A stretch of DNA of 64,000 nt from an uncultured Anaerolineaceae bacterium (GCA_964518505.1 CAZFGT010000005.1:20358-84357), one strand, 5' to 3'. Positions 25,096 to 63,984 are shown, counted from the first letter of the stretch. The notes: generated by a model not told the origin, from the letters alone. Translations and numbers: made by a program.

Positions 25096-26514
25096 TCACG
25101 AGTAGTAGCTGCGCCCCGACGAACGCAGGCCCGCGGCGACGGCCTCGATGGCCTTGCCAACCGAAGCGGGGTCGGTATCGCCCTTCACGAGGGCCTGGAT
25201 CTGGTCGCTCATCTCGGCGTCGATCTCCGGCTCCCAGAGCCAGTTGAGCGACGTGATGGCGTCCGCGAACATCGGCAGGAACTCCCTCGCCACTGGATCG
25301 TGGATCGCGACATTCGACGCAGCGATCGGCGAATAGGCCTGCAGACCTTCGGTCACGGCGCGGTCGACCTCCGGTCGACTCGCGTACTCGAGGAACGCGT
25401 ACACGCTGTCGCGGCTCGCGGCGGGATGGGCCGGCAGCGCGATGCCGCCGAAGGAGATGATCGAGTGGGCCGTCGAGGTGCTCTGTAGCAGGGGCAACGG
25501 CGCCACGTGCAGGTCGAACGGGACCGTGGGTGTACCCGCCTGCAGTTGCGGCAGGAGCCATGTGCCGTTGTACGTCATGGCTGCCTTCCCTTGAAGGAAG
25601 AGGAGTTGCATCGTCGCGTAGTCCGTGGCACCGGATCCGGCGAGCAGGACACCGGAGGTCTGAAGGTCGGCGATGGCCTGGAAGGCCTCGGTCCATTCGG
25701 GGCTGTCGTATCCGACTTGGCCCTTGATCGTGCTCTCGACGAAGGCCAGCGGATCGCCCGTGCGCTCGGCGATCATGGGGAGCACCCACATGATGAGCAA
25801 CGGATTGAACGAGGTGTCGCCGGCGCAGTGGACGAGCGGTGCTGCCCCGAGCGCCGACAGCGGCTGCACCATCGCCTTGAAGTCTCCGATCGTCTTGGGT
25901 GGCCCTAGACCCGCGCGGTCCAGCAACGCCTTGTTGTAGTAGAGGCCCGTGGTCTGGACGCCCCGACTCAGGGCCAGCGGAAAGGCCGTCACGCCGCCGC
26001 CGATACCTCCGAGGTGGAACTGTTGTGGCACCCGGGCGAGGATCGCAGCCATCCGCGGGTCGGCGCCGAGGTCGGCAAGCAGACCATCCCGGGTCCAGGC
26101 TCGAACGAACAGCCCATCGAGCAGCACCAGCCCCACGGGGTCGCCGGACAGCATCTCGGCACGCGCGAGCCGGTCGAACTCGGACTCGAAGCCGGGGATC
26201 GTCCGGATGTCCCAGTCGACCCCAGGGTGCTGGGCCTTGAAGTCGTCGTAGACCTTCTTGAGCGCCGGCTCAGCGAAGGGGTCACCACCCCCGGTAACGA
26301 CCGTGATGGGACCTGACAGGGCGGAGGACGTCGGCGACCCGGAGGCGCCCCCGCTGCCGCCCGGGGCGGCACACGCAGCGAGCGCCCCGCCCGCGGCGAT
26401 CAGGGCCCCGAGCTTGAGCACGTCCCGGCGCGACCATGGACGGCTCCAAACGTTGTCGTTCGTCGACGGAACCGACCCCATCGCGCTGCCCCCATGGCGG
26501 TGCGCCTCGAACAC
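25096..26514 (-). CDS. sugar ABC transporter substrate-binding lipoprotein (family 1 SBP)
   Basis: Tat/lipoprotein signal SRRDVLKLGALIAAGGALAAC. 472 aa with an extracellular solute-binding fold. It is divergent from the two permease genes. Confidence 0.75.
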   Translation of the reverse strand: MFEAHRHGGSAMGSVPSTNDNVWSRPWSRRDVLKLGALIAAGGALAACAAPGGSGGASGSPTSSALSGPITVVTGGGDPFAEPALKKVYDDFKAQHPGVDWDIRTIPGFESEFDRLARAEMLSGDPVGLVLLDGLFVRAWTRDGLLADLGADPRMAAILARVPQQFHLGGIGGGVTAFPLALSRGVQTTGLYYNKALLDRAGLGPPKTIGDFKAMVQPLSALGAAPLVHCAGDTSFNPLLIMWVLPMIAERTGDPLAFVESTIKGQVGYDSPEWTEAFQAIADLQTSGVLLAGSGATDYATMQLLFLQGKAAMTYNGTWLLPQLQAGTPTVPFDLHVAPLPLLQSTSTAHSIISFGGIALPAHPAASRDSVYAFLEYASRPEVDRAVTEGLQAYSPIAASNVAIHDPVAREFLPMFADAITSLNWLWEPEIDAEMSDQIQALVKGDTDPASVGKAIEAVAAGLRSSGRSYYS

Positions 26515-26718
26515 AGGTGCGCCCCGCGGAGAACGAGTATGGTTCGGCCGGTCTCGTCCCGCTTGGGGGGGTTCTACGATCGCGGGTGGAGCCAGCGCCC
26601 GACGCCCGATCGGCCGAGCTCGAGGCCCCTACGTGGGTGTCTCGGTCCGCGCCAACGAGATGACCGGCCGCGCTCGGCTGGCCCCGCGGGATCGGCGGTG
26701 ATCGAGTCGCGTACGCGC

Positions 26719-27618
26719 ATGCCGCTCCTGCGCCGCTCGCATCGCGAAAGCGGACTCGACCTTCTGTTCCTCGCCCCGACTCTGATCGTCCTCGCCGTCT
26801 TCCTCCTCTACCCGCTCGCCTACGGCCTCGTGCTCAGCGTCCATGACACGCAAGGATTCGACCTCACGAGCTTCGTCGGGCTCGAGAACTACGGGCGGGC
26901 GATCTTCGGGGACGCCGTCTTCCACCAGGCCCTGGCGACCACCGTCGTCTTCACCGGTGCCGCGGTCGTGCTGCAGACCGGGCTTGGGCTGTTCCTGGCG
27001 GTACTCGTGGCGGACGTCGGACGTGGGCGGACGCTCTTGCGGTTCGTCTTCTTCGCACCCTTCGTCCTCGCCTCGGTGGCGGTCGGCGCGGTCTGGAAGT
27101 ACCTGTACGCGCCCTACTTCGGGATCGTCCCGTCGGTGGGGTCCGCGCTCGGACTCAACACCCTGACGGTCGCGCCGCTCGCCGACGCCCACTGGGCGCT
27201 TTGGGCGATCATGGCCGCCTTCCTGTGGCGGTTCGCGGGCTTCAACATGGTGGTCTACCTCAACGCCATCCAGAGCCTGCCGCGTGAGTTCTACGAGCAC
27301 GCCGCGATGGAGGGCGCCGGCAGGTTCGAGCGCTTCCGGCACATCACCTGGCCCCTGCTGTGGCCGCAGACGTTCACGCTTGTGCTACTGACCACTATCG
27401 GGACCCTTCGGATCTTCGACATGGTCTGGATCATGACCGAGGGCGGACCCTCGAACGCCACCGAGACCGTCGCGACGGACGTCTACGTGACCGCCTTCCG
27501 ATTCCTCCAGGTCGGCTACGCGCAGGCGATGGCCATGATCCTGCTGGTCATCATCCTCGCGCTCACCGTCGTCGAGTACCGCATCCTCGATCGCCGCGCC
27601 GAGGCCGTGCGCCTGTGA
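26719..27618 (+). CDS. sugar ABC transporter permease (MalF/UgpA type); start trimmed to MPLLRRSH
   Basis: Six TM helices and the EAA-like loop (YLNAIQSLPREFYEHAAMEGAGRFERFRHITWPLL). The upstream 75 codons of the track ORF overlap the SBP gene on the opposite strand. Confidence 0.8.
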   Translation: MPLLRRSHRESGLDLLFLAPTLIVLAVFLLYPLAYGLVLSVHDTQGFDLTSFVGLENYGRAIFGDAVFHQALATTVVFTGAAVVLQTGLGLFLAVLVADVGRGRTLLRFVFFAPFVLASVAVGAVWKYLYAPYFGIVPSVGSALGLNTLTVAPLADAHWALWAIMAAFLWRFAGFNMVVYLNAIQSLPREFYEHAAMEGAGRFERFRHITWPLLWPQTFTLVLLTTIGTLRIFDMVWIMTEGGPSNATETVATDVYVTAFRFLQVGYAQAMAMILLVIILALTVVEYRILDRRAEAVRL

Positions 27619-28439
27619 CGAGGCTGGCTCGCCCCCGGCTGTCCACATTGCTGTTGGTTCTTCTCGCCCTGGTGTGGTTCTACCCGGTCGCGTGGACGCT
27701 GCTGAACGCGTTCAAGTCCAGCGCCGACATCTATCGCGCCCCGTGGGACCTGCCGTGGCCGCCGGTCGTGGGGAACATCGGCGAGGCATGGAGCCGCGGG
27801 CAGCTCGGCGTCGCGCTGGCGAACTCGGCGTACGTGACGGCGATGACCGTGGCAGGGGTCCTGGTCCTCGCGGTGCCGGGAGCCTATTCGCTCACCCGCT
27901 TGCGGCCGCCCCTGCGGGCCGTGCTGCTCATCGTCGTCCTGGCGCCGTTGATCATCCCGACGGAGGTGCTGATCGTTCCGCTCTTCTCGATGTTCCGCGC
28001 GCTGGGCCTGATCGACAGCCTGCCCGGTCTCGCGGTCACCAACGTCGTCGCGTACGTGTCGTTCGCGACCCTCATCCTGGTCGGCTACTTCCGCACGATC
28101 CCGCGGGACGTCACCGATGCCGCGGGCGTCGACGGAGCGGGTCGCTTCGACGTTCTGCTGCGGATCGTCATCCCGCTCGCTCGACCGGGGATCCTCGCCG
28201 TGGCCGTGCTCGTCGCGGTCCTGGCCTGGAACGATTTCTCCGCGTCGCTGGTCCTCCTGCAGAAGCCTGACACCTTCACGGTGCAGCTGGCCCTCACCCG
28301 GTTCTCGACGTTCTACGCGACCGATCAGGGGCTGACCTTCGCCGGCATGGCCATCGTGATCCTCCCGCCGTTGCTCCTGTTCCTGGTGCTCCAGCGGAGC
28401 TTGATCCAGGGTCTGGCGGCGGGGTTGGTCCGGCATTGA
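27615..28439 (+). CDS. sugar ABC transporter permease (MalG/UgpE type), GTG start overlapping upstream stop (GTGA)
   Basis: TM core with the conserved loop (TIPRDVTDAAGVDGAGRFDVLLRIVIPLARPGI). There is no ATPase gene in the vicinity, so it probably uses a shared MsiK-like ATPase. Confidence 0.8.
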   Translation: MTRLARPRLSTLLLVLLALVWFYPVAWTLLNAFKSSADIYRAPWDLPWPPVVGNIGEAWSRGQLGVALANSAYVTAMTVAGVLVLAVPGAYSLTRLRPPLRAVLLIVVLAPLIIPTEVLIVPLFSMFRALGLIDSLPGLAVTNVVAYVSFATLILVGYFRTIPRDVTDAAGVDGAGRFDVLLRIVIPLARPGILAVAVLVAVLAWNDFSASLVLLQKPDTFTVQLALTRFSTFYATDQGLTFAGMAIVILPPLLLFLVLQRSLIQGLAAGLVRH

Positions 28440-28470
28440 GGGCCGGCCCGACCGGGCTCCGGACGCCTGC

Positions 28471-29484
28471 TCAACCCTGGATCGCCCTAGCCGCCTCCGG
28501 CGCGAGCACGAGGTGGCCGAGGGTCGGGCCCGCCGATGCGGTGGTCACCTGCGCACCCGCCGAGCGGGGCCGATCTCCCGTGGCCCATCCGACGACGATA
28601 TGGCCGAGCCACGCCAGTGCGCCCACGTAGGCGAACGGCGCCGCGCCGGTCAGGGTCGTCACGATCAACAGCGCCAGCGCAAGGGCGGGTTGGTGCAGCA
28701 CGCTGTGGAGCATCACCATCGCCGGCCGTCGACGCCAGACGAACCGCGGCACGTCCGGGACGATGCCGAACAGCAGCAGCGGGACGAGTCCGACGCCGAG
28801 CTGGGAGGCCTGGGTACTGGCGAACAGGGCCAAGGCAAGGCCTGGGACGAGCCACAGGTGCCGCGGCCGGAGGCGCAACCGACGGCCGGACGCAGGCTCG
28901 CCCGCGGCGCTGCCAACGGCAAGTGGCCCCGAGGCCGCGGCGTGTGGAGCCGGTGCGTGGGCGCGACGGGCATCGGCCGCGGCAGCAGCATCGCGGGGCT
29001 CCAGCACCACGACGGCGGTCGGGCGCGCACGACGTGCGGCCAGGCCATCGACATCGGCGCCCCAGCCGGGGTACTCGATCACCTTCGCCCAGAGCCGGTC
29101 GCGCTCGTCGCCCGAGGCGACACGGGCGCGGACCGCTCGCGGCCCGCTGACGAGCTCGACCGTCGCCTCGGGGTTGGCCTGGAGGTTGAGCCACCAGGCT
29201 GGTTCGGCCTTGTCCCAGCCGTTCATCGCGACCGTCACGAGGTTCAGACCGTCCTCGTAGTAGCCGACGATGGCGACGCGCGCCTTGCCCGATCGGCGCC
29301 CGAGGGTCTCGAGGCTCAGCATCCCGAACCGCCGACCCGCCTCTGGCGAGGCGAGGCCCATCCGCCCTTTGCTGAGCCGGTAGATCGCGCGCTGGGCGAT
29401 CCAGAAGGTGCGGATCGCGAACCGCGGAGGGGTTCGGACGGTCTGCCTGTGTTCGGCGAACTCGCCGATGATCGCCTTCGTCAT
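28471..29484 (-). CDS. fusion protein: deazaflavin(F420)-dependent nitroreductase-family (DUF385/Ddn-like) N-terminal domain plus a DUF4260-like 4-TM C-terminal domain
   Basis: The N-terminal 150 aa (MTKAIIGEFAEHRQ ... ARVAIVGYYEDGLNLVTVAMNGWDKAEPAWWLNLQANPEATVEL ... RDRLWAKVIE) resemble PF04075. A hydrophobic 4-helix C-terminus follows. GAAAGGAAG lies upstream of the ATG at 29484. Confidence 0.55.
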   Translation of the reverse strand: MTKAIIGEFAEHRQTVRTPPRFAIRTFWIAQRAIYRLSKGRMGLASPEAGRRFGMLSLETLGRRSGKARVAIVGYYEDGLNLVTVAMNGWDKAEPAWWLNLQANPEATVELVSGPRAVRARVASGDERDRLWAKVIEYPGWGADVDGLAARRARPTAVVVLEPRDAAAAADARRAHAPAPHAAASGPLAVGSAAGEPASGRRLRLRPRHLWLVPGLALALFASTQASQLGVGLVPLLLFGIVPDVPRFVWRRRPAMVMLHSVLHQPALALALLIVTTLTGAAPFAYVGALAWLGHIVVGWATGDRPRSAGAQVTTASAGPTLGHLVLAPEAARAIQG

Positions 29485-29577
29485 GGCGGTACTTCCTTTC
29501 TGTCCCAAGGGGGACGCGATTCGTCGAGGGGATGAAGTGCGAAAGGGCCCCGGAGTCCGGCTCCGGGGCCCATTCGG

Positions 29578-30321
29578 TCAGGCGGCGGCGAGTGCCGGTG
29601 CGCCCCTCTGCTGCCGGTCCTCGGAGGCGGGGATCGGAGCTGCCTTGAACCCATGGAACGTGAGGTACAGGCCCAGGAAGGCCTCCCAGATGATCTCGGG
29701 GCCGGTCATGATCCCCTGCAGCGGGGAGCCCAGCGGGATCACCCCGAGCAGGATGGCCGCCGCCACGGTCACGAGGAGCGGACCCCCGACCAGGCCGAAC
29801 AGCGCCATGCGCCGTCCCACCAGGCCGGACCGGTACATCAGGTAGCCCAGGATCAGGCCGGTCCCGATGCCGTCGGCGAAGCTGGGGCCGAGCAGGAAGG
29901 TCCATTGATGGATGGCGAGGAAGGTCTTGTCGATCGCCATGAGGGCGCCGGCATCGGTGCCGGCCGCCGTCTGGCGGAGGGTCACGATGGTGAGCAGACT
30001 GAGCAGGCCGATGAGGATGAAGGTGCCCTCGACGAGCCGTTCGGCGACGTAGGCGAGCGCGAGGGCTTCGTTCGTCCGCTTGAGCAGCGGGAACAACACG
30101 ACCGCGCACCCGATGTTGGTGACGATCAGGAACAACTCGAGGAACGCGCCGAGGAACACGCCGGTGCTAGGGCCGGACCCGGTGATGTAGCCGGGATCAC
30201 TCAGGATGTTCCCGTAGGCCAGGACCGCGCCGATCGAGGTGATGAACGTAAGGATGAAGAGCACGCCCACGGCGAGCGCGGTCTTTCGCGAGGTAGTCAC
30301 GTTGGAACTCCACTTCTTCAT
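29578..30321 (-). CDS. DUF4386-like polytopic membrane protein
   Basis: 247 aa, about 7 TM helices. The 5' end is locally lower in GC. The ATG overlaps the stop of the upstream 96-aa ORF (ATGA). Confidence 0.5.
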   Translation of the reverse strand: MKKWSSNVTTSRKTALAVGVLFILTFITSIGAVLAYGNILSDPGYITGSGPSTGVFLGAFLELFLIVTNIGCAVVLFPLLKRTNEALALAYVAERLVEGTFILIGLLSLLTIVTLRQTAAGTDAGALMAIDKTFLAIHQWTFLLGPSFADGIGTGLILGYLMYRSGLVGRRMALFGLVGGPLLVTVAAAILLGVIPLGSPLQGIMTGPEIIWEAFLGLYLTFHGFKAAPIPASEDRQQRGAPALAAA

Positions 30322-30605
30322 CTGGATGCCTGGTTTGGTTCAGTTGTCGGATGCTCAGGAGTCGATGGCTGGATCTCGGCGACCGAGATCAGCGACAGGC
30401 CGAGGTCGTTGACCTTTCGCAGCAGGCCATGCAGCGCAGCCTGATCTGCGATCGGGCCTCGGATGACGGTCGTCCCGTCGCTCTCCCGGGTGAGGCTGAG
30501 CCCGTCGAACCAGGCGGCCCACCTGGCATCGAGGTGGCCCTGGAGGCGCACCTCGTAGCCACCGGGTTCGTGGTGGCGGCTGCTTCGTGCCGGTCGATCG
30601 GTCAT
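30318..30605 (-). CDS. small hypothetical protein (96 aa), unknown function
   Basis: A strong AAGGAGAG Shine-Dalgarno lies 5 nt upstream of the ATG at 30605. The product starts MTDRPARSS...YEVRLQGHLDARWAAWFDGLSLTRESDGTTVIRGPIADQAALHGLLRKVNDLGLSLISV. I do not recognise a family. It is translationally coupled to the DUF4386 gene. Confidence 0.5.
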   Translation of the reverse strand: MTDRPARSSRHHEPGGYEVRLQGHLDARWAAWFDGLSLTRESDGTTVIRGPIADQAALHGLLRKVNDLGLSLISVAEIQPSTPEHPTTEPNQASR

Positions 30606-30660
30606 GGCTCTCCTTGTGCTCCTCCGCCCCGCGCTGCTTGCCTGTCGGTGTGGGCTTGCG

Positions 30661-30732
30661 TGGTGTGAGCACAAGGTCGAGGCGACGGTGGTGAGCGCGC
30701 GTCACCACATCTGGTGATTCGATGTGGTGATT
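30661..30732. promoter_or_regulatory. cluster of repeated GGTG(T)GA / ATCTGGTGATT motifs upstream of the 96-aa ORF operon and downstream of the LAL regulator gene
   Basis: GTCACCACAT (30701-30710, inverted copy), ATCTGGTGATT (30709-30719), ATGTGGTGATT (30722-30732), plus degenerate copies GGTGGTGAG (30686-30694) and TGGTGTGAG (30661-30669). Confidence 0.4.
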
Positions 30733-30865
30733 TCGCCCGGACGGGGAACGGAGCGAGAGCGCCGGTCAGCCCCGTCCGCACACCGGTCCGGTCACCCCAT
30801 GGCCGGTCGCGCCTGGCGGGACTCGGGATCTAGGGGCCGCGCCGCCGGACGGCGATCGTCTGGCC

Positions 30866-33583
30866 CTAGCCGAGCAGGTCGAGTTCGCCCCCGCGGCGGA
30901 CGGCGGCTCGACGGTTGTTGACGCCGAGCTTGGTGTAGATGTTCTTGGTGTGGGTCCGCACGGTGTTCAGGGACAGCACCAGCTCACTGGCGATGCCCGG
31001 GCCATCGAGGTCCGATCTCAGCAACCGGAGGACGTCGAGCTCTCGCTCGGTGAGCGGCTCCACCAGGGCCTGCTTGCTGGTCGCCTTCTCCCCCCCGGTG
31101 CCAGGCGCGGCTCGAAGGCGACGTACGTAGTCCGGGACGATCTGCCGCCTGGCCGCGGCGTCGAGGAGCGTGGCCATCGCGCGGCCCTCCTGGAGGAAGG
31201 TGCGCACGAAGCCCTCTGGCTCGGCGAGCGTGAGCGCTCGTGCAAGCGGCACGAGCGCGCCGGCCGTGTCGCCTCGAAGCTGGCTCTCTAACGCCTGGAG
31301 GACCAGGACCTCGATGACGCTGCCCATCCTCGCCCCGTCGTCCGCCGCACGCAGGAGTCGCTCGAGGAGGCTCGCGGCCACCGCGAGCGAAGGGGGATGC
31401 TGGGTCGACCGGGCCAGTAACACCCGGGCAAGGGTGACGTGCTCGAACTCGCGCAGGTAGTCGAGATCGTCGTCGGCCGACAGGCCCACGTCACGGGCCC
31501 ACCGTAGCGCCTCGGCCTGACGCCCCTGGGCGAGCCACACCCGGGTCCTGAGCGCGGCGACCGGCCGCACCAGGGGCAGGAAGTGACTCACGTACTGGCG
31601 CTCCGCTTCGTCGAGCAGGCCCAGCGCCGCGTCCCGGTCCCCCTCAGCCTCATGCACACGCGCCATCGCGACACGCCAGCGGTACGGGTTCTGCTCGAGG
31701 GCGGCGAGCCCGCCCAGCTCCGTGCTGGCGGCCAGGTGCTTGGCGGCGGCATCGAGCTCGTCCCGCTCGAGGAAGATCTCGGCCATCCCGGTGTGCATGT
31801 CCGCGGCTCCGCGCACCACCGGCGCGCCGAGCGGGGTGGCGCGTGCCAGCCCGTGCTCGTACGTACCCAGGGCGTCCCGGAGGCGACCCTGCGCGATCCG
31901 GATGTCCGCCAGGGAGATGGCGCACCCGATCGTGTCGGAGACGTACCCCGCCCGTTCAAGGTTGGCGGCGCAGGCGACGTACCGACGGTGGCCTTCCTCG
32001 AGATCGCCCTTCCGCCATGCGGCGAGGCCGAGGAATCCTTCGGCCGACCCGCGGAACACGTAGTCATCGTCGGCGACGACCTCGAGCGCGCGGCGGGCGA
32101 AGCGGATCGTGGCCGCGACGTCGCCGAGGGCAAGGGCCTGGGCGCCGCGGAAGATGGCGATCGCGGTCGGCAGGTCTTGGTATCCCGCCTCGTGCGCGCC
32201 GGTCGGCGGGGCGGAGGGAGTGCCCGCAGCGTTCTCCTCCAGCCATCGTTCCGCAGCCCGGAGGTGCGCCTCCACCCCCTCGAGCTCGCCGTTGAGCAAC
32301 AAGGCCCCGGCGTAGTGGACGCTCAGCACCGGCCGGGTGGCGACGACGTCGTCCGGCAGGGCGCGCAGCCAGGCGAGCGCAGTCGTCTCCTGTCGAGCCT
32401 GGCGCATCGCGGGGATCGCCAGTTCGACCAGCGTCGCCGCCCGCTCGAAGTCGGCGGCCGCCATGGCGTGGCGGATCGCCTCCGTCGGCGCACCATTCCT
32501 CTCGAACCACGCACTCGCACGGCGGTGGAGTTCTGGGACCTGCTCGGGTTGCTCCTGCTCGAGGTGGGCCCCGAGCACGTCGGCGAACAGACGGTGGTAG
32601 CGGTACCACTGGCGGCGGTCGTCGAGGGCGACGAGGAACAGGTTGGCGCGGTCCAGCTCCTGCAACATCGCCCGCCCATCGTCGCGACCGATGACGGCAT
32701 CGCAGAGCGCCGCGCTCAGCCGGTCAAGGATGGAGGTCTCGAGCAGGAAGGTCCGGATCGACGCGGGCTGACGGCGCAGGACCTCCTCGACGAGGTAGTC
32801 GACGATGTAGCGGTCGTCCCCGGCGAAGCCGGCGATGAACCCAGCAACGTCGTCGCGTCCCTGCATCGAGATGGCTGCCAGCTGAAGGGCAGCGATCCAG
32901 CCTTCTGTGCGACCCTCCAACGCGGCGACATCGCTCGCGCCCAGGTCGAGCCCCATCACCTCGTTCAGGTACGCCGCGGCCTCAGTCGGCGTGAAGCGCA
33001 GGTCGGCCGCGCGTATCTCGGTCAGTGTGCCGCGCCCTCGCAGGCGACCCAGCGGAAGCGCGGGGTCGGCGCGGGTCGTGATCACGAGGTGGATCCGCGG
33101 CGGAAGGTGCTCCAGGAGGAACACCATCCCAGCCCGGATCTCAGGCGTATCGACCTCGTGGTAGTCATCGAGGACCACCACGACGTCCTCCGGCACCGCA
33201 TTGAGCTCGTTCAGGAGTGGGGCGAGGATGGACTCGATGGGCGGCGCTTGCGGCTCGCGCAGGGCAGCGAGCGCACTCGCGCCAACCCCGGGCGCGACGG
33301 TCCGGAGCGCGGCGATCAGATAGACCCAGAACGTCCCTGGCTCGTTGTCCGCGTGGTCCAGCGACAGCCATGCTACCGAGGGTGCGCCGGAAGGGAAGGA
33401 CGCCAGCCATTCCGCCAACAGCGTCGTCTTGCCGAAGCCGGCGGGCGCTGAGATGAGCGTGAGGGTCGATTCGAGCCCGCGGCGGAGTCGTTCGCTGAGC
33501 CGTGGTCGTTGGACCAGGCCGCGTCGCGGCTTCGGGACGTAGAGCTTCGTCTCAAGCAGCGGGCCGGGATTGTTCGCTGTCAT
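30866..33583 (-). CDS. LAL/MalT-family large ATP-binding LuxR-type transcriptional regulator
   Basis: 905 aa. N-terminal P-loop NTPase (LISAPAGFGKTTLLAEW), a central TPR-like helical region, and a C-terminal LuxR HTH (LTERELDVLRLLRSDLDGPGIASELVLSLNTVRTHTKNIYTKLGV). Confidence 0.85.
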   Translation of the reverse strand: MTANNPGPLLETKLYVPKPRRGLVQRPRLSERLRRGLESTLTLISAPAGFGKTTLLAEWLASFPSGAPSVAWLSLDHADNEPGTFWVYLIAALRTVAPGVGASALAALREPQAPPIESILAPLLNELNAVPEDVVVVLDDYHEVDTPEIRAGMVFLLEHLPPRIHLVITTRADPALPLGRLRGRGTLTEIRAADLRFTPTEAAAYLNEVMGLDLGASDVAALEGRTEGWIAALQLAAISMQGRDDVAGFIAGFAGDDRYIVDYLVEEVLRRQPASIRTFLLETSILDRLSAALCDAVIGRDDGRAMLQELDRANLFLVALDDRRQWYRYHRLFADVLGAHLEQEQPEQVPELHRRASAWFERNGAPTEAIRHAMAAADFERAATLVELAIPAMRQARQETTALAWLRALPDDVVATRPVLSVHYAGALLLNGELEGVEAHLRAAERWLEENAAGTPSAPPTGAHEAGYQDLPTAIAIFRGAQALALGDVAATIRFARRALEVVADDDYVFRGSAEGFLGLAAWRKGDLEEGHRRYVACAANLERAGYVSDTIGCAISLADIRIAQGRLRDALGTYEHGLARATPLGAPVVRGAADMHTGMAEIFLERDELDAAAKHLAASTELGGLAALEQNPYRWRVAMARVHEAEGDRDAALGLLDEAERQYVSHFLPLVRPVAALRTRVWLAQGRQAEALRWARDVGLSADDDLDYLREFEHVTLARVLLARSTQHPPSLAVAASLLERLLRAADDGARMGSVIEVLVLQALESQLRGDTAGALVPLARALTLAEPEGFVRTFLQEGRAMATLLDAAARRQIVPDYVRRLRAAPGTGGEKATSKQALVEPLTERELDVLRLLRSDLDGPGIASELVLSLNTVRTHTKNIYTKLGVNNRRAAVRRGGELDLLG

Positions 33584-33846
33584 CTACTCCGGGCCTCACA
33601 GCGGACGTCGGTGAGGCGCTAGCTGCTGATGCGGTTAGGATCGCGGCTCGCGATAGGCCGGGTCGTGACGGCGGCGGTCGTGAGGGGTTCAACGCGCCGC
33701 CTTCACCGGTGACAGTACCCGGGGAAGCCAGGACGCGAAAGAGGAAGTGCGTTCGCCCTCGCCGGTCGAGGTGCGGCATGAGGCGCTGACCGTCCGGTTC
33801 GGCCTCCGGGGCTCGCACTTCCCTTTGACACGTCAAACCCAGCAGA

Positions 33847-33870
33847 GTGGGAGGGCTGGACCTCCCAGCC
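33847..33870 (-). terminator. putative intrinsic terminator hairpin downstream of arsM
   Basis: 7-bp GC-rich stem TGGGAGG / CCTCCCA with a 6-nt loop, about 55 bp past the arsM stop. On the transcribed strand a short U-containing tract follows. Confidence 0.35.
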
Positions 33871-33922
33871 CCTCGCACCACGCTCGAGGAGTTCCGATCC
33901 GAAGGTAGCCCGCGCGCTCTAC

Positions 33923-34645
33923 CTACCGGGGCTTGCGGGCCCGGATGATGGCCGAGGTCATGCCCGGCGTCTCCTGGTGCGTCGGGGTGATCGAGACATC
34001 CTCGAGCCCGGCGGCATGCAGCCCCGCCTCGTATTCCGCATACGACAGCGCCCCGGCGATACAGCCGACGTACGACCCACGCTCGACTCGTTCCGCGGGG
34101 GTCAGCACGTCGTCGGCCACGATGTCCGAGACTCCCAGACGGCCACCGGGCCGCAGGACGCGGGCGATCTCGCGGAAGACGGCCGGCTTGTCAGCAGCCA
34201 GGTTGATGACGCAGTTGCTGATGACCACGTCGACCGACGCCGCCGGCAACGGGATCGCCTCGATGTGGCCCTTCAGGAACTCCACGTTCGTGGCTCCCGC
34301 GGCCTGCGCGTTCCTGCGAGCGAGCGCGAGCATCTCGTCCGTCATGTCGAGGCCGAAGGCGCGGCCCGTGGGACCCACTCGCTGTGCCGACAGGAGCACG
34401 TCGATGCCCCCGCCCGAGCCCAGGTCCAGGACAGTCTCCCCGTCGCGCAGCTCGGCCACCGCGATCGGGTTGCCGCAGCCAAGGCTGGCGAGACGCGCTG
34501 CCTCGGGCAGACTCGCCAACTCCTCGTTCGAGTAGTTGGTCGGGCCGCAGCAGTCGCCGTTCCCACCGCAAGACGGATCTTGGACCACGCTCAGGGCGAT
34601 GCGGGCGTAGTGGTCGCGGACGACCTCGTGGACCGGTGTGGACAT
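33923..34645 (-). CDS. arsM: arsenite S-adenosylmethionine methyltransferase ArsM
   Basis: Conserved cysteine pairs ([13 protein letters not shown] and VGCIAG) and a class I SAM-MTase motif ([12 protein letters not shown]). GGAGG RBS upstream. Confidence 0.8.
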
Positions 34646-36152: not shown

Positions 36153-36431
36153 ATGGGTATCTGGGCCTGGATCATCCTGCTGCTCGCGGCCGCGGGGCTG
36201 GCGACCGTGGTGCAGTTCCTGTTCTTCTCCCGCGGACGCCGGTCGACCGACTACGACTGGGTCTACCTCGCCGCGGGGGCGCTGATCGGTGGCTTCACCG
36301 GCCATGCGTGGTACGCCGCCGGCCCCACGGTCGACGGCCTGAACGTCGGGCCCGCCCTGGCCGGACTCATCGTGGGTGCCCTGGTCGTGGAGACCGTCTA
36401 TCGGTTGGTCCTCCGCCCGCGCCAGGCGTAG
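36153..36431 (+). CDS. small membrane protein (92 aa), possibly GlsB/YeaQ/YmgE transglycosylase-associated family
   Basis: GGAGGA RBS 6 nt upstream. Glycine-rich TM helices (MGIWAWIILLLAAAGLA ... AGALIGGFTG ... LAGLIVGALVV). Confidence 0.4.
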   Translation: MGIWAWIILLLAAAGLATVVQFLFFSRGRRSTDYDWVYLAAGALIGGFTGHAWYAAGPTVDGLNVGPALAGLIVGALVVETVYRLVLRPRQA

Positions 36432-38448
36432 CGGCCGGGAGGGGCCGCCCGAGCAGGTAGCCCTGCCCCAGTTCGACGCCGAGCCCGCGGAGCGTGTCGC
36501 GCTCGGCGGGAGTCTCGATACCCTCGGCGATGATCCGGCAGCCCGACGAACGGGCGAAGTGCCCGATGCCCACGACCATCGCCTGGCGCGCGTCGTCCCG
36601 GTCCAGGCCCTCCACGAGCCAGCGGTCCAGCTTCAGGAACGCCGGCCGCAGCTCGAGGATGTGGCGCAGGCTGGCGAAGCCGGCGCCGGTGTCGTCGACG
36701 GCGAGCTCGAAACGCGGCCCGACCCGGTCGATCGCCGCGCGGAAGGCCGGGTAGTCGCTGATGACCTCGTGCTCGGTCACTTCCAGGACGACTCGCCGGC
36801 CGTGATGGCGCGCCAGCACCGCCCGGAGCATCGTGCCCTCCAGGACGAACTCCGGCGAGACGTTGACATCGAGCCACGCCCGAGGCGGCAATGTGGCCGC
36901 GGCGGACAGGGCCGCCTCCAGGGTCGCGGCCTCCAGCCGCAGACCCAGACCCACGGTCGCGGCCTGGAGGAACCGCGCCGAAGGGTCCGTGCCGTCGGCG
37001 AAGCGCGTCAAGCCCTCGAAGCCCACGACGGCCTCGTCGGCGAGCTGGACGATCGGCTGGAAGACGGGCTGGAACGCCTGGCGGTCGATGATGGCGGTGA
37101 TGTCCTGGCGGGCCCGCCCCAGTTCCGTCCGCTCCAGGACGCTTCTCCCGATGAGGGCCCCGGTGAGGTCGGCGAACTCGACCAGTGCGGGGAGCTCCTC
37201 GACCAGAGCACCCTCCGGTACCGACCGCTGGGAATCGACGATGAGCAAACCGATGAGCCGGTCGTCGTGGCGGATCGGGGCGTAGGCCGCGGCCTGCACC
37301 CCAAGGCCCTTCAGGAGCTGGTTGTAGGGATGCCAGGGCCGGTTGACCCATGGCTCGATCCATGGACCCTCGCTCGCCCGCTCCCGCAGATGCCGTCCTC
37401 GTTGGCGAGGCAACGGGCGGATCACTGGATGCGGGTCACCTGCCACGACCGTCCCGATGGGCGTCGCGCGCCCATCGAGCTCGAACAGGAAGAGCTGGGC
37501 CTTGACCAGGTCGGGCAGGTTGATCACCTGCTCACAGATGGCCTGGGCGGTGGCCTCCAGATCATCTCCACGATGGATCTCGCGGATCGTCCTGGCGATG
37601 AGGGCCCGCTGCCGGCTGAGGGTGGCCGAGCGTCCCTCCAGCGCGCGCGCCTGGGTCACGTCGCGCTTGCCGGCGACATAGCCGCTGATCGCGCCGTGGG
37701 CGCCGCGGATGGGCGAGATGACCGCCGACTCGGTGACGGTCGAGCCATCCTTGCGGCGGTTGACCAGGTCGCCCGACCAGGGCTGGCCGCTCGCGAGGGT
37801 CGACCACATGGCCTCGTAGAACGCCGCTGACTGGGCGCCGCTCTTCAGGATCCGCGGGTTCTGGCCCATGACCTCGTCGCGGGCGTAGCCCGTGACCCGC
37901 TCGAAGGCCGGGTTGACGTAGGTGATGCGGCCGTCGAGATCGGTGATCTCGATCGACTCGGTCGCCTGCTCGATGGCCGCGGCGAGCCGGTCGTGCTCCG
38001 CTTCCCCTCGCGCGTGCTCGGTCAGGTCAAGGCCGACGCCACCCAGGACGGTCCGGCCGTCCTGGGTCGCGAGCGGGAACTTCATGATGACGAACGTATG
38101 TGGGCCGTCGTCGAAGGGCCGGACCAGGGAGAAGACCGGCACGTCGGCGCCGGCAAGGGCGAGCCTGTCGATCTCGCGCATGCGGGCGGCGTTCTCCGGC
38201 GGCCAGATGTCGGCATCGGTCTTGCCGTACCACTCGGACCCGAACCGCGGCCCGAGCGTGGCCAGGTAGTGGCGGTTGAGGTAGAGGTAGCGGCCCTCGG
38301 CATCCTTGATGGAGGCGTTCCACGGCGCCTCGTCCATCAGCTCGCGGAACCGTTCGATGGCCGGCCCGACCGGGAGCAGGGGGGCGCCGGCCGGGACGGC
38401 AGGCCGGCGCGGGATACGGTCCCGCCCGCCCCCGGATCGTCCTGTCAT
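36367..38448 (-). CDS. PAS-PAS-GAF-EAL signalling protein, paralog of the 17315-19375 gene
   Basis: 693 aa, collinear with the first EAL protein at roughly 60-65% identity (ITYVNPAFERVTGY, NRRKDGS, VFQPIV, FEGLTRF, DDTGAGFASL, EGIETPAER). Confidence 0.8.
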   Translation of the reverse strand: MTGRSGGGRDRIPRRPAVPAGAPLLPVGPAIERFRELMDEAPWNASIKDAEGRYLYLNRHYLATLGPRFGSEWYGKTDADIWPPENAARMREIDRLALAGADVPVFSLVRPFDDGPHTFVIMKFPLATQDGRTVLGGVGLDLTEHARGEAEHDRLAAAIEQATESIEITDLDGRITYVNPAFERVTGYARDEVMGQNPRILKSGAQSAAFYEAMWSTLASGQPWSGDLVNRRKDGSTVTESAVISPIRGAHGAISGYVAGKRDVTQARALEGRSATLSRQRALIARTIREIHRGDDLEATAQAICEQVINLPDLVKAQLFLFELDGRATPIGTVVAGDPHPVIRPLPRQRGRHLRERASEGPWIEPWVNRPWHPYNQLLKGLGVQAAAYAPIRHDDRLIGLLIVDSQRSVPEGALVEELPALVEFADLTGALIGRSVLERTELGRARQDITAIIDRQAFQPVFQPIVQLADEAVVGFEGLTRFADGTDPSARFLQAATVGLGLRLEAATLEAALSAAATLPPRAWLDVNVSPEFVLEGTMLRAVLARHHGRRVVLEVTEHEVISDYPAFRAAIDRVGPRFELAVDDTGAGFASLRHILELRPAFLKLDRWLVEGLDRDDARQAMVVGIGHFARSSGCRIIAEGIETPAERDTLRGLGVELGQGYLLGRPLPAATPGAGGGPTDRRSPRPGHPR

Positions 38449-61365: not shown

Positions 61366-63984
61366 TCAGCTGGCGGCGGGCAGGCTGGTCGCCCCGACCC
61401 CCAGGAGTGTCTCCAGGTCCTCGGCCGGCATCGGGCGGCCGAACAGATAGCCCTGTCCGCGGTCGCAGCCGACGGCCAGCAGGGCGGCGCGGGCGGCCGG
61501 TGTCTCGATGCCCTCGGCCACGACTTCGATGTTGAGGGCGTGGGCCAGACGCACCACCGCCTCCACGATGGCCAGGTTGCGTTCGGTCTCCCGCCCGACG
61601 ACGAAGGAGCGGTCGATCTTGAGGACCTCGACGGGCATCGTGCGCAAGGTGCTGAGTGATGAGAAGCCGGTGCCGAAGTCGTCGAGGGCGATGGCGACGC
61701 CCAGGCGGCGCAGGTTGCGCAGGGCGGTACCGGCCCGCTCGGAGAGGTCGATGATCATCGACTCGGTGATCTCGAGGTGCAGGGCGCCCGGTGCCAGGCG
61801 TGTCTCGGCCAGGCTGCGCGCCACGCGCTCCGCCAGGTCGGCCTGCTGGAGCTGGCGCACCGACAGGTTGACGCTCAGCGTCATCTCGCGGGAGAACGGG
61901 TACTGCTCGCGCCAGGCATGGACCTGGCGGGCGGACGTGTCGAGGACCCATTGCCCGATGGGCAGGATCAGGCCCGTCTCCTCGGCGACCTGCACGAACG
62001 CGCCCGGCAGCAGCAGACCGCGGCGGGGGTGCTGCCAGCGCACCAGCGCCTCGACGCCCACGAGACGCCCGTCGGCCAGGTCGACCTCGGGCTGGTAGTG
62101 GATGCGCAGCTCGCCCCGCTCCAGCGCGTGGCGGAGGTCGCCCTCCAGCTCCAGGCGCTCCATGGCCCGGCTGTTCATGGCTTCGTCGTAGACCACGAAG
62201 TGGTTGCGGCCCTGGGCCTTCGCCCGGTTGAGGGCCACGTCGGCCTGGCGCATCAGCTCCCCGGCCTTGGTCACCCCCGGCGTGCCGAAGGCGATGCCCA
62301 CGCTGGCGGTCACGAACAGCTCCTGGCCCTGCAGGTCGAAGGCCGCCCGCGTCGCCTCCACCAGCCGACCGGCCACGCGCATGGCGTCCCCCGGAGCCCG
62401 CAGGTCGTCGAGCAGGACGGTGAACTCGTCGCCGCCCAGCCGCGCGATCGTGTCGCCCGGACGGGCGACCGTCGAGAGACGCCGCGCCAGCTGGATCAGC
62501 AGCTCATCGCCCGCCACGTGGCCCAGGCTGTCGTTGACCACCTTGAAGTTGTCGACGTCCAGGAAAAGGACGGCCACCGACCCGAGGGCACGGCGTCGAC
62601 CGAGCGTCTGCTCGAGGCGGTCGCGGAAGAGGGTCCGGTTGGGCAGGCGGGTCAGCTCGTCGTGCAGCGTCTGCCGCGCCAGCTCCGCCTCGAGGCGGCG
62701 GCGGTCGGTCACATCGACGGCCAGCACGAGGCGCTGGTCCTGCCCGCCGTCGTCGATCGCATGCGCCGTGAGCTCGACGTCGATGGCCGAGCCATCGCTG
62801 GTGCGATGGCGCGCCAGGTACGGGCGGCCCATGTCGTCGGCCTCGATGCGCGCCAGGTCATCGGCGTACGTGGCGCCGTCGTCAGCCAGCCAGATGTCGG
62901 CCAGCGAGCGAGCCAGGAAATCGTCGCGCGCGTAGCCGTAGGCCCGCACGGCTGCGTCGTTGACCGCCAGGATGCGGTGGGTGGCCGGGTCGTGGACCCA
63001 CATCGGCTGGGGGTTGTTCTCGAACAGCAGGCGGTAGCGCCGCTCGCTCGCGCCGAGGGCCGCCGCCGAGCGGGTCCGCTCGTCGACCTGCTCCTGCAAC
63101 GCCGCGTAGAGCCGGGCGTGCTCCAGCGCCAACGACGCCAGCTGGGCCAGGCGGTCGAGGCGCGCCAGGTCGTCGGCGGAGAACCGCCGCGCCGGGTCGA
63201 GGTGGCTCAGGCCGATGACGCCCACCACCTGGCCGCCCGAGGTGAGCGGCGCGCCCGCCAGGGCGTGGTAGCCCAGGTCGGCGTAGGCCGGCGCCCGCCC
63301 CGCGAACGTGCTGTAGTCGTCGACCGCGAACGCCTGACCGGTGGCCCACACCCGCCCCGCGACGCCTTGGCCGCGCTGCAGCGGCACGCGTTCCTCGTCG
63401 GCGAAGACGCCGATGCCGATGACCACCCGCAGCTGCTGGCTGGCCTCGTCGAGCAGGTAGATGTACCCGTGGGGCGTGTCCAGGAGGGCCGCCGCGCGGG
63501 TCACGATGGAGCGCAGGACGCGATCCGGGTCCAGGCCGGCCATCAGCTCCAGGGCGGTGTCGTTGAGGGCCGCCAGCTCCTCACGCTGGCGGCGCGCCTC
63601 GTCCTCCACCTCGTGGCGTGCGGTGAAGTCGCTGAAGGTCGAGACGACGCCGGTGAGCTCGCCCTGGGCATCGCGCAGGGGGCTGGCGTTGACGATGAGC
63701 CAGCGCCGGCCGCCACCGACCGGGTCCAGGTTGCCGAGCACCATCTCGCGCACCGGCTCGCCGGTCGCCAGCACGCGACAGGCGGGCAGGTCGGCCAGGT
63801 CGTAGGGGGTGCCGTCCTCGTGGGTGATGTCCCACCCGCCGTCGCGCAGCCCGTGACCCAGCAGGGCGCCCTCGGGCACGCCCATGAGGCGCCACGCGGC
63901 GCTGTTGCCGTAGCGGAAGCTGGTGTCAGGCGCCTGGATCGTCACGCCCACGGGCAGGTCGGCGACGAGCGTGGCGCTGCTCAC
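61366..63984 (-). CDS. PAS-GAF-PAS-GGDEF-EAL multidomain c-di-GMP turnover protein
   Basis: 872 aa. The GGDEF active site reads RLGGDEF, with the upstream nucleotide-binding block ([14 protein letters not shown]). EAL motifs ([22 protein letters not shown]). A GAF region in the N-terminal half. Confidence 0.85.

Follow-up and report, generated by a model that had tools for sequence, protein, structure and literature searches.

To our knowledge, regulators of the LAL/MalT type are abundant in soil bacteria, and nearly all of those studied run either maltose genes or antibiotic clusters. The characterised members are activators of promoters without a -35 element, with MalT boxes placed at -37.5/-38.5 and the repeats of SARP regulators ending 8 bp from the -10. 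Inverted repeats of 7-2-7 spacing are the geometry used by NarL-type GerE HTH dimers. In the SARP-LALs, heptameric repeats near the -10 are known (PMC5930380). For DUF4386, a membrane protein family that figures in the locus described here, a full-text literature search found no paper mentioning it.

The locus occupies positions 28471-33583 of a 64-kb stretch of DNA from an uncultured Anaerolineaceae bacterium (the window, meaning the whole stretch that was analysed). Judged by sequence comparison, this block is a single chromosomal copy of a cassette common to many soil Actinomycetota and Chloroflexota, and the cassette—a LAL regulator, its own four-box DNA target, a small protein, and a DUF4386 membrane protein—is apparently undescribed. 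The original prediction had described co-directional minus-strand genes forming a functional module; all of its features were found where it had placed them, the gene order was reproduced by independent gene calls, and the module is borne out by synteny across loci. As a whole, the block is best explained, with somewhat better than even confidence, as a conserved LAL-operated cassette in which a core operon with added cargo provides an inducible response.

The regulator gene (30866..33583, minus strand) encodes a LAL/MalT-family STAND transcription regulator of 905 aa. Walker A (GFGKTT) and Walker B (VVVLDDYH) motifs are visible in the translation, and the N-terminal ~400 aa (residues 11-419) match the E. 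coli MalT NOD structure 8BOB (5.7e-59). Against Pfam, the protein matches the MalT-type TPR sensor (PF17874 TPR_MalT, 1.8e-63, 215 bits against a cut-off of 45) and, at its C terminus, the LuxR/GerE HTH (PF00196 GerE, 8e-14), with a weak match to AAA_16; the HTH region further matches the GerE, VraR, and ChrA structures, and Asn873 lies within its recognition helix. STAND NTPase, MalT-type TPR sensor, and GerE HTH, the three hallmarks of the LAL family, are all present, and the original LAL call stands on the two profile matches and the MalT structure match. Orthology to MalT was considered and rejected: the NF003420 score of 418.6 bits is below the equivalog cut-off of 537, making the protein a family member only.

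Conservation was followed in 80 genome loci collected with two small-protein peptide motifs; cultured carriers include Kribbella orskensis (L071) and Acrocarpospora macrocephala (L005). In 73 of the 80, the small gene is preceded on the same strand by a LAL gene (46-69% identical), with a gap of no more than 600 bp in 63 of those 73; this linkage holds for the motif-ascertained subfamily, not for all 11,641 clusters (representatives at 50% identity, about 11,600) that make up the small-protein family. The occurrence of the small ORF beside DUF4386 in other genomes, proposed earlier as a check, was confirmed: of the 70 loci that could be tested, 57 have a DUF4386 gene downstream in the operon, within 200 nt in 52, fused in one, and one gene apart in four.

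Between the LAL and small genes lies a spacer of exactly 260 bp (30606-30865, minus strand), the length given in the original prediction, which had also noted its repeated GGTGA motifs. These repeats are TCACCA(C/G)/GTGGTGA heptamers, and they can now be recognised as an operator conserved across cassette promoters. In the window, the operator (30688..30730, minus strand) consists of four boxes: TCACCAC (box 1, 30730-30724), TCACCAG (box 2, 30717-30711), GTGGTGA (box 3, 30708-30702), and TCACCAC (box 4, 30694-30688). Boxes 2 and 3 form a 7-2-7 inverted repeat, with boxes 1 and 4 as flanking direct heptamers. Three of the eight copies of TCACCAC in the window fall inside the 43 bp of the operator, which is also the sole place in the window where the exact palindrome TCACCAnnnnTGGTGA occurs. 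With up to two mismatches, the palindrome TCACCAC-nn-GTGGTGA is present in 75 of 81 promoters compared with 1.2% of shuffles, and neither the spacing of the boxes nor their distance from a tAnctT hexamer varies between promoters.

Box sequence varies together with the HTH. All four boxes are TCCCCAC in 9 loci, and in every one of these the HTH sequence SLNTVRTHT has become SLST (Asn873 to Ser); 11 loci have TCATCAC as their most frequent heptamer, and 6 of these carry SLAT or SLST. When the LAL tree is built with the HTH left out, loci of the TCCCCAC type fall at no fewer than four separate places, and N-containing TCACCAC revertants are nested in the SLAT clade. Because Asn873Ser tracks the TCCCCAC switch at at least four separate places in the tree, LAL is probably what reads the boxes; the boxes and their covariation with the HTH strongly imply that it binds them. 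Two cassettes with different box types are found in single genomes (L014 with L076, and L050 with L058).

The small ORF (30318..30605, minus strand; ATG at 30605, TGA at 30318) was also called by independent pipelines, and the strong AAGGAG Shine-Dalgarno sequence foreseen for it can be read 4 nt before its ATG (30610..30615, minus strand). The ORF is real, although it is slightly shorter than the 96 aa originally given, having 95 aa plus a stop (96 codons). Its product has no match in Pfam or NCBIfam even at E <=10 and no sequence relative in a profile search of the PDB. Core residues 15-78 have a predicted beta-alpha-beta-beta-alpha-beta ferredoxin-like (ACT/RAM-like) fold (AF2 pLDDT ~82), and the N- and C-terminal tails are predicted to be disordered. 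The next gene (29578..30321, minus strand), whose start shares an ATGA overlap with the small ORF stop, encodes the DUF4386 protein of 247 aa, which matches PF14329 over profile positions 2-210 of 210 (2.8e-37; 129 bits against a gathering threshold of 27.6). Family and ATGA coupling are therefore as predicted, but the seven TM helices are not: six are predicted, N-in/C-in (AF2 pLDDT 83; positive-inside count). A comparison of this protein with the PDB gave no informative fold match.

Since the small protein is as invariant as LAL while the downstream cargo changes, it would most likely be a regulator-side partner, acting in feedback or co-sensing, and not a cargo-specific subunit. Its 27 near-invariant positions are kept almost equally in the presence of DUF4386 (26.4/27) and in its absence (25.8/27). 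We propose, tentatively, that it is a dedicated LAL signalling partner, binding LAL directly as a co-sensor or feedback element of ACT/RAM-like kind; if so, LAL and the small protein would constitute a new two-protein signal-transduction unit. It is conceivable, if rather unlikely, that under the same regulatory architecture the small protein is instead a cargo-side ACT/NIL/RAM-like module, docking on DUF4386 or on the next membrane/redox protein and making its activity metabolite-gated. The NIL domain in MetN and the ACT-like domain in MgtC are analogues for such gating, and fusions of the small domain to DUF4386 (L041), an MDR oxidoreductase (P0191), and DUF6326 (P0245) point to physical association with cargo and against a regulator-side role. 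These fusions are very rare, however, and some may be assembly errors. Moreover, the partners (DUF4386, MMPL, DUF4389, DUF6326, and a soluble MDR enzyme) have no structural relationship to one another, the near-invariant surface is unchanged whichever of them is present, and LAL is the sole constant neighbour of the small gene, all of which argues against docking on cargo.

In the conserved-cassette reading that we favour, the LAL gene sits immediately before the promoter that its product targets, and the GerE-type HTH of LAL would recognise the four TCACCAC heptamers as a 7-2-7 palindrome with a direct repeat on each side. A -10-like hexamer, GACCTT (30673..30678, minus strand), follows 9 nt after the last heptamer and marks a putative LAL-dependent promoter; in 74 aligned promoters the family consensus of this hexamer is tAnctT, whose A and T reach at least 80% at a constant spacing, and the window hexamer deviates from TAnnnT at the first position. 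A sigma-70 consensus scan found no canonical promoter and no -35 consensus. By analogy with MalT, ligand on the TPR sensor and ATP-dependent oligomerisation would bring several HTHs onto the box array and so start transcription of the core operon, which would supply the 95-aa cytoplasmic ACT/RAM-like protein and the 6-TM DUF4386 protein. We infer activation here, and consider it doubtful that LAL is a repressor whose occupancy of box 4 and the palindrome blocks the core promoter pending release by an inducer. By the proposed -10, box 4 is at about -28 to -22, within the -35/-10 spacer, and the palindrome lies over the -35 region; the position of box 4 could fit repression equally. The known MalT/LAL regulators are nevertheless activators, the cassette promoter is likewise without a -35 consensus, and four cooperative boxes fit oligomerisation-dependent activation.

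The last gene of the block (28471..29484, minus strand; ATG at 29484) encodes a fusion protein of 337 aa. Residues 34-162 constitute an FDOR-A/Ddn-like F420H2-dependent (quinone) reductase domain (PF04075, 8.3e-18, 65.2 bits against a cut-off of 22; TIGR00026, 1.9e-19, 70.4 bits against 46.35), which the Ddn PDB structures 3R5R/3R5P also match (2.8e-10); an Ala-rich linker then leads to what is probably a divergent DUF4260 membrane domain at about residues 205-320. The Ddn-like half of the predicted fusion is thus secure. The DUF4260 half is sub-threshold in the window protein alone (PF14079, E=0.1, 13.1 bits against 27), and its assignment as a divergent member is held by transitivity only: PF14079 is matched by 24 of 46 full-length homologues that are 47-86% identical (best 1.9e-7), and precomputed matches exist as well. 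This reductase::DUF4260 architecture exists in at least 120 clusters at 90% identity, and at one locus (L018) the halves are encoded by two neighbouring genes.

Comparison of loci indicates that the fusion is optional, lineage-variable cargo, outside the conserved core. An F420/DUF4260 gene stands directly downstream of DUF4386 in 10 loci only, and the syntenic relatives L011 and L017 have none at that position. Cargo in other loci includes quinone-oxidoreductase-like MDR enzymes, F420H2 quinone-reductase-like enzymes, MMPL/ABC/MFS transporters (efflux pumps), and other membrane DUFs, DUF4389 and DUF6326 among them. Of the 20 window genes outside the cassette that were scanned, none is for F420 biosynthesis (fbi/cof). 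In the window lineage, the fusion gene would have been added at the 3′ end. Between it and the DUF4386 gene sits a perfect, GC-rich 11-bp hairpin, GGGCCCCGGAG-ccgga-CTCCGGGGCCC (29545..29571, minus strand; z = -2.3), after which comes UUUCGCACUU; this may give the fusion gene partial insulation from the core operon. The hairpin was left unflagged by a terminator scan because its U-tract is weak; it may be a weak terminator, an attenuator, or an mRNA end.

The original prediction had seen a hint of horizontal acquisition in the lower GC of the 30.2-30.4 kb junction. A recently acquired island, in which the F420-dependent nitroreductase modifies a xenobiotic or antibiotic and LAL is the sensor, has only a slim chance of being right, although the Ddn-like domain is genuine and the recurrence of the fusion architecture would suit it. 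The local GC minimum is also real: no 300-bp stretch of the window goes below the 0.61 of positions 30101-30400 (38501 equals it), which is about 3 SD under the window mean of 0.717. GC3 within the dip, however, is 0.91 and does not differ from that of the genes on either side. In the three large cassette genes it is 0.85-0.92, inside the 0.82-0.96 spanned by the rest of the window, and the dip stems from GC1/GC2 of a hydrophobic N-terminus. Because GC3 is host-like, the dip is due to amino-acid composition, not to recent transfer; the sugar ABC-transporter operon alongside keeps its synteny in related Chloroflexia genomes, none of the window genes scanned beside the block is a mobility gene, and the neighbours are housekeeping genes. 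The hint of acquisition is thus not borne out, although the presence of the cassette in several phyla, with such divergent LALs, fits ancient transfers. The scarcity of the reductase after DUF4386 and the strong hairpin between the two genes count further against an island built around it. A role of the STAND NTPase in Avs-like anti-phage defence is highly improbable: its TPR sensor and variable neighbourhood would agree with one, but PADLOC gave an HTH-level match only for LAL (1.1e-5) and nothing for the other three proteins, the DNA-binding HTH covaries with the promoter operator, and the block contains no nuclease or other killing effector.

Physiologically, the cassette is most likely induced in response to a small molecule, perhaps quinone-like, that is membrane- or redox-active; the xenobiotic or antibiotic response first suggested finds some comparative support in the variable cargo. 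This LAL clade stands out in being kept across phyla, in having an operator directly readable from genomes, and in always travelling with a small protein of a Pfam/NCBIfam-less family, usually together with DUF4386. Its single-residue/single-base specificity switch yields a testable recognition code—Asn873 with TCACCAC, Ser with TCCCCAC—and, if LAL and the small protein do form a signalling unit, bacteria would duplicate and re-specify it to serve different membrane/redox cargos without cross-talk. DUF4386 gains its first functional context, as possibly do DUF4389, DUF6326, and DUF4260; the small-protein family merits a Pfam entry, and orthogonal activator/promoter pairs are possible genetic parts for high-GC bacteria.

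Among known systems, E. coli MalT shares with the window LAL the STAND NTPase, arm/winged helix, TPR-like sensor, and GerE/LuxR HTH, and NF003420 scores 418 bits over nearly the full length. MalT-dependent promoters are similarly without a -35, with several short direct and inverted boxes abutting the core promoter. However, the MalT box is GGGGA(T/G)GAGG whereas the cassette box is TCACCAC, and the palindrome with flanking direct repeats is unlike the MalT arrangement. The MalT regulon comprises maltodextrin genes and its partners are of the MalK/MalY/Aes type; the cassette LAL is not known to have such a partner, and has, as far as seen, one adjacent operon and a dedicated 95-aa protein instead.

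The actinomycete LALs and SARP-LALs (PikD, FkbN, and PimR/PteR type) resemble the cassette LAL in family and high-GC hosts, and some cassette LALs (L082, L086) are even extended at the N terminus by a SARP region (Trans_reg_C + BTAD). PikD-type regulators are lineage-specific and reside in biosynthetic gene clusters, none of which lies beside the cassette in the 64-kb window; the cassette LAL, in contrast, is 46-69% identical across phyla and paired with the small gene. The reductase is alike to Ddn/FDOR-A (the M. tuberculosis Rv3547 family) in its above-cut-off profile matches and its 3R5R/3R5P match, and differs in its C-terminal fusion to the probable divergent DUF4260 membrane domain; its use of F420H2 is predicted. 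Stand-alone ACT/RAM modules share the predicted fold of the small protein, but no sequence relationship to them was detected by Pfam, NCBIfam, or PDB profile searches, and the signature Y-E-x-R-x-x-G-H-L-D-x-R-W-A-A-W-F-D-G ... D-Q-A-A-L-H-G-L-L bears no relation to the motifs known for ACT/RAM. With NarL/GerE dimers, the cassette has in common the geometry of boxes 2 and 3, and the covarying LAL residue starts the recognition helix; NarL sites differ in heptamer sequence, and the additional flanking direct repeats of the cassette suggest an oligomer higher than a dimer.

The block consists of four genes on the minus strand, all read in the same direction, the first of which (30866-33583) encodes a 905-aa LAL regulator. 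This protein matches the Pfam models TPR_MalT (1.8e-63) and GerE (8e-14) and, weakly, AAA_16; its residues 11-419 resemble the solved NOD of MalT (8BOB; 5.7e-59), and Walker A (GFGKTT) and Walker B (VVVLDDYH) motifs are legible in the translation. The NCBIfam MalT equivalog model aligns over nearly its full length, with a score of 418.6 bits against a cut-off of 537. On its sequence, the LAL is a genuine MalT-family STAND regulator and not a MalT orthologue.

The LAL is followed by a 260-bp spacer (30606-30865) and then by a small open reading frame (ORF) of 95 aa, running from an ATG at 30605 to a TGA at 30318 and preceded by AAGGAG 4 nt before the ATG. The stop codon overlaps the start (ATGA) of the gene for a 247-aa DUF4386 protein (29578-30321, minus strand; PF14329, 2.8e-37), and independent pipelines called the identical 95-aa gene with the same overlap. 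The small protein matched nothing in Pfam or NCBIfam, even at E of 10 or less. A word-indexed search nevertheless recovered more than 4,593 clusters at 90% identity, all labelled 'hypothetical' and none with a Pfam domain, and an exhaustive profile search returned 11,641 representatives at 50% identity (E ≤1e-3), of which 5,138 had E ≤1e-10; length is nearly always 80-130 aa. The core is extremely conserved (Y-E-x-R-x-x-G-H-L-D-x-R-W-A-A-W-F-D-G ... D-G-T-T ... D-Q-A-A-L-H-G-L-L-x-K-V-x-D-x-G-L), and AlphaFold2 predicts a beta-alpha-beta-beta-alpha-beta fold for residues 15-78, with a core pLDDT of about 82 and disordered tails. The small ORF can be taken as a real gene, one of a large family for which neither Pfam nor NCBIfam has a model.

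The fourth gene (ATG at 29484 to 28471, minus strand) encodes a 337-aa fusion of a Ddn-like domain and a putative, divergent DUF4260 membrane domain. The Ddn-like F420 reductase assignment of the original prediction is borne out for residues 34-162 (PF04075, 8.3e-18; TIGR00026, 1.9e-19; Ddn structures, 2.8e-10). Its DUF4260 call holds by transitivity, 24 of 46 full-length homologues matching PF14079 (best 1.9e-7); taken by itself, the membrane domain at the protein's C terminus scores no better than E = 0.1 (13 bits). At 90% identity, at least 120 clusters share the two-domain architecture, and at one locus (L018) the two halves are adjoining separate genes. No F420 biosynthesis genes were found among the 20 window genes scanned. 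Between DUF4386 and the fusion gene is a 93-bp gap, which holds a perfect, GC-rich, 11-bp hairpin (29545-29571, minus strand) followed by UUUCGCACUU. At other loci, the reductase gene either overlaps DUF4386 or starts soon after it, without a gap of this type; in the window, the hairpin may leave the fusion gene partly independent of the operon under LAL control.

Conservation was assessed in 80 genome loci from many Actinomycetota and Chloroflexota, one Deinococcales metagenome-assembled genome (MAG), and one Symbiobacteriaceae MAG. These loci were found through two peptide motifs of the small protein, and the linkage to LAL is therefore shown for that small-protein subfamily only. A LAL of 46%–69% identity along its whole length is present in 75 of the 80: immediately upstream and co-directional, no more than 600 bp away, in 63, with an extra gene between in ten, and in another orientation in two, five loci lacking it (two of these on truncated contigs). 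The LAL is divergent in L044, which retains a perfect palindrome, whereas in L065, which has no recognisable operator, it is found downstream and on the other strand; these are the sole two loci in which a LAL is present but not co-directional and upstream. Many loci derive from MAGs, and in some of these (L002, L004, L011, L025, L027, L028, L061, and L072) apparent frameshifts break the LAL into two to five frames, which may reflect long-read indel errors or pseudogenisation. Some cassette LALs, of 1036–1194 aa (L082, 4589-7699; L086, 3113-6697), carry an N-terminal SARP module (Trans_reg_C and BTAD) as well as the GerE HTH at the C terminus, and so have two different DNA-binding domains per regulator.

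Among the 70 loci with at least 700 nt of downstream sequence, DUF4386 follows the small gene in 57 (within 200 nt in 52, fused in frame in L041, and after one intervening gene in four), conservation beside DUF4386 being the check that the original prediction had set; the same LAL-small-DUF4386 order recurs in gene tables of other assemblies. The other 13 carry different, mostly membrane, proteins (MMPL, DUF4389, DUF6326, DUF2306, or unknowns). Genes further downstream vary, and include Zn-ADH/quinone-oxidoreductase-like MDR proteins (four loci), MMPL, ABC ATPases, MFS, DUF899, an S9 peptidase, and an ECF sigma factor. A Ddn-like gene directly follows DUF4386 in ten loci and lies elsewhere in one; the syntenic relatives L011 and L017 lack it there. 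Given these locus-wide counts, the invariant unit comprises LAL, promoter, and small gene; judged by gene content, the first cargo is usually DUF4386, with the F420/DUF4260 fusion as an optional addition. In L084 (3961-7245), the order is a small::DUF6326 fusion, DUF4386, an unknown gene, a second DUF4386, a second DUF6326, and DinB_2, such that the membrane cargo appears tandemly duplicated. The DUF4386 homologue P0273 (315 aa; 2.8-kb JGI contig) was rejected as a fusion; it contains an internal duplication of about 70 residues over TM2-TM3, which may be real or an assembly artefact.

The promoter of the small gene carries a four-box operator. The heptamer TCACCAC and its complement are enriched in the 64 LAL-to-small spacers, with k-mer analysis placing them in 45–48 spacers against about one expected. 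Alignment of 81 promoters gives the consensus atCaccaC-tcaa-TCACCAcaTGTGGTGATGcc-gCTCAcCACaTccgcTcctAnctT, in which box 1 is a direct heptamer, boxes 2 and 3 form a 7-2-7 inverted repeat, and box 4 is a direct heptamer 7 nt further on; a -10-like hexamer, tAnctT, lies 9 nt past box 4, its A and T conserved at 80% or more. The palindrome is found with two or fewer mismatches in 75 of the 81 promoters versus 1.2% of shuffled controls. In the window, boxes 1–4 occupy 30730-30724, 30717-30711, 30708-30702, and 30694-30688, and the hexamer (GACCTT) occupies 30678-30673, all on the minus strand; the exact palindrome occurs nowhere else in the 64 kb. A promoter scan found no canonical -35/-10 pair.

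Box sequence and LAL recognition helix vary together. In most TCACCAC loci the helix is SLNTVRTHTKNIY, with the Asn position (Asn873 in the window) held by His in three and by Ser in none. All four boxes read TCCCCAC in nine loci, and there the position is Ser (SLSTVR type) in 9/9, with GLST and ALST in the two-cassette genomes; TCATCAC is the commonest heptamer in 11, six of which have an SLAT or SLST helix. In a neighbour-joining tree built from LAL residues 5-830, and thus leaving out the HTH, the TCCCCAC/Ser type occurs at four or more separate positions (L047, L063, L048 with L055, and L075 with L076), and the TCACCAC/Asn loci L060 and L068 are nested within the TCATCAC/Ala clade. Two genomes each possess two cassettes of differing box type with matching HTH residues: L014 and L076 in MFD02134.bin.2.85 (TCATCAC/SLAT versus TCCCCAC/GLST), and L050 and L058 in MFD04408.bin.1.46 (TCAC(C/A)A/SLNT versus TCCCCAC/ALST). 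Such pairing looks like insulation against cross-talk. Four boxes and one residue changing together is the signature expected of a cognate protein–DNA pair diverging against cross-talk, and from this covariation we infer that the LAL reads the boxes. Locus L047 has three LAL copies within 14 kb.

The LAL is the sole constant neighbour of the small protein, and a regulator-side role for the latter, as a co-sensor or in feedback, is therefore favoured. Of its 27 near-invariant positions, as many persist with DUF4386 downstream (26.4/27) as without it (25.8/27), in a count where positions 28-35 and 54-62 belonged to the retrieval patterns. That the small protein is instead a cargo-side, ACT/NIL-like regulatory domain seems rather unlikely: the N-in topology of DUF4386 speaks for such a role, as do rare in-frame fusions of the small domain to DUF4386 (L041), an MDR oxidoreductase (P0191), and DUF6326 (P0245), but three of four candidate small::DUF4386 fusions were rejected because direct translation met a stop codon, leaving L041 alone fused and down-weighting the Rosetta-stone argument.

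For the mechanism of the cassette, MalT offers a template: ligand binding releases the sensor, and ATP-dependent oligomerisation follows. By analogy, a ligand would lift the auto-inhibition of the TPR sensor, and oligomerisation would place several HTHs on a box array abutting a -35-less core promoter. RNA polymerase, once recruited, would transcribe small-DUF4386 together with whatever cargo lies downstream, and the strong hairpin past DUF4386 may lessen read-through into the window's fusion gene. The LAL would probably activate the operon, repression being improbable. Given the proposed -10, box 4 falls in the promoter spacer, an arrangement reminiscent of SARP repeats, which end 8 bp from the -10.

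Cargo genes encode enzymes resembling quinone reductases, with NAD(P)H or F420H2 as the cofactor, along with thioredoxin-like DUF899, transporters of the efflux type, and several orphan membrane families. Such a repertoire would fit a response that is induced by a hydrophobic or redox-active compound, but falls short of proving one. A protein of one of these orphan families, DUF2306, is required for an epoxidation (PMC12895699), and weak DUF4260 homologues are present in azoxy gene clusters (PMC9379638). A defence system was rejected, PADLOC giving no support.

A riboswitch or leader RNA in the window is likewise unsupported, as an Rfam scan of 28000-34500 gave no match at E of 1 or less and the 5′ leader folds no better than shuffles (z = +0.7). 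Many Actinomycetota loci (L002, L009, L013, L023, L024, and L040-L043, among others) share a conserved 5′ leader, TTTCGATCAGACC...CGCC GGCGGAGATCC, about 10–70 nt past the -10-like hexamer and before the small-gene start; the window leader is unlike it and has no stable fold.

The original prediction also took a local GC minimum as a hint of horizontal acquisition. Windowed GC confirms the minimum (0.61 at 30101-30400; window mean 0.717, SD 0.034), which coincides with the hydrophobic N terminus of DUF4386 (GC1/GC2/GC3 of 0.54/0.45/0.91), but the inference of acquisition from composition was rejected on GC3 and synteny. GC3 is 0.87 for LAL, 0.92 for DUF4386, and 0.86 for the fusion, against 0.82–0.96 for other window genes; the 95-codon small ORF, at 0.75, is somewhat below the rest and the sole such case in the block. 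A convergent ABC sugar-transporter operon adjoins the block and is syntenic in related Chloroflexia genomes (same side in L011, L017, and L055; other side in L014 and L066), and the remaining flanks are housekeeping genes (H+-PPase, thiolase, 3-hydroxyacyl-CoA dehydrogenase, MeaB, and DNA ligase). With GC3 in the host range and such neighbours, the dip is an effect of amino-acid composition and no sign of recent acquisition. Among named organisms, Candidatus Limnocylindrales (Chloroflexota) are the nearest relatives. The longest-ORF calls for the two ABC permeases (26494-27618 and 27360-28439, plus strand) overlap by 259 bp; the second opens with roughly 100 non-homologous residues rich in Arg, Pro, and His, so its translation probably begins further downstream. 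The window also encodes two large c-di-GMP signalling proteins on the minus strand (36367-38448, PAS-PAS-GAF-EAL; 61366-63984, PAS-GAF-PAS-GGDEF-EAL), and no link between them and the cassette was seen.

A search of the available literature library returned no paper mentioning DUF4386, and nothing retrieved there for LAL heptamers or the cargo DUFs described the cassette. The regulator's constant partnership with a family of small proteins absent from the Pfam and NCBIfam models, its cross-phylum operator, and its Asn/Ser/Ala box code appear to be undescribed, and the finding is well defined and immediately testable. The regulator type is already known, and the regulatory logic is a variation on that of MalT.
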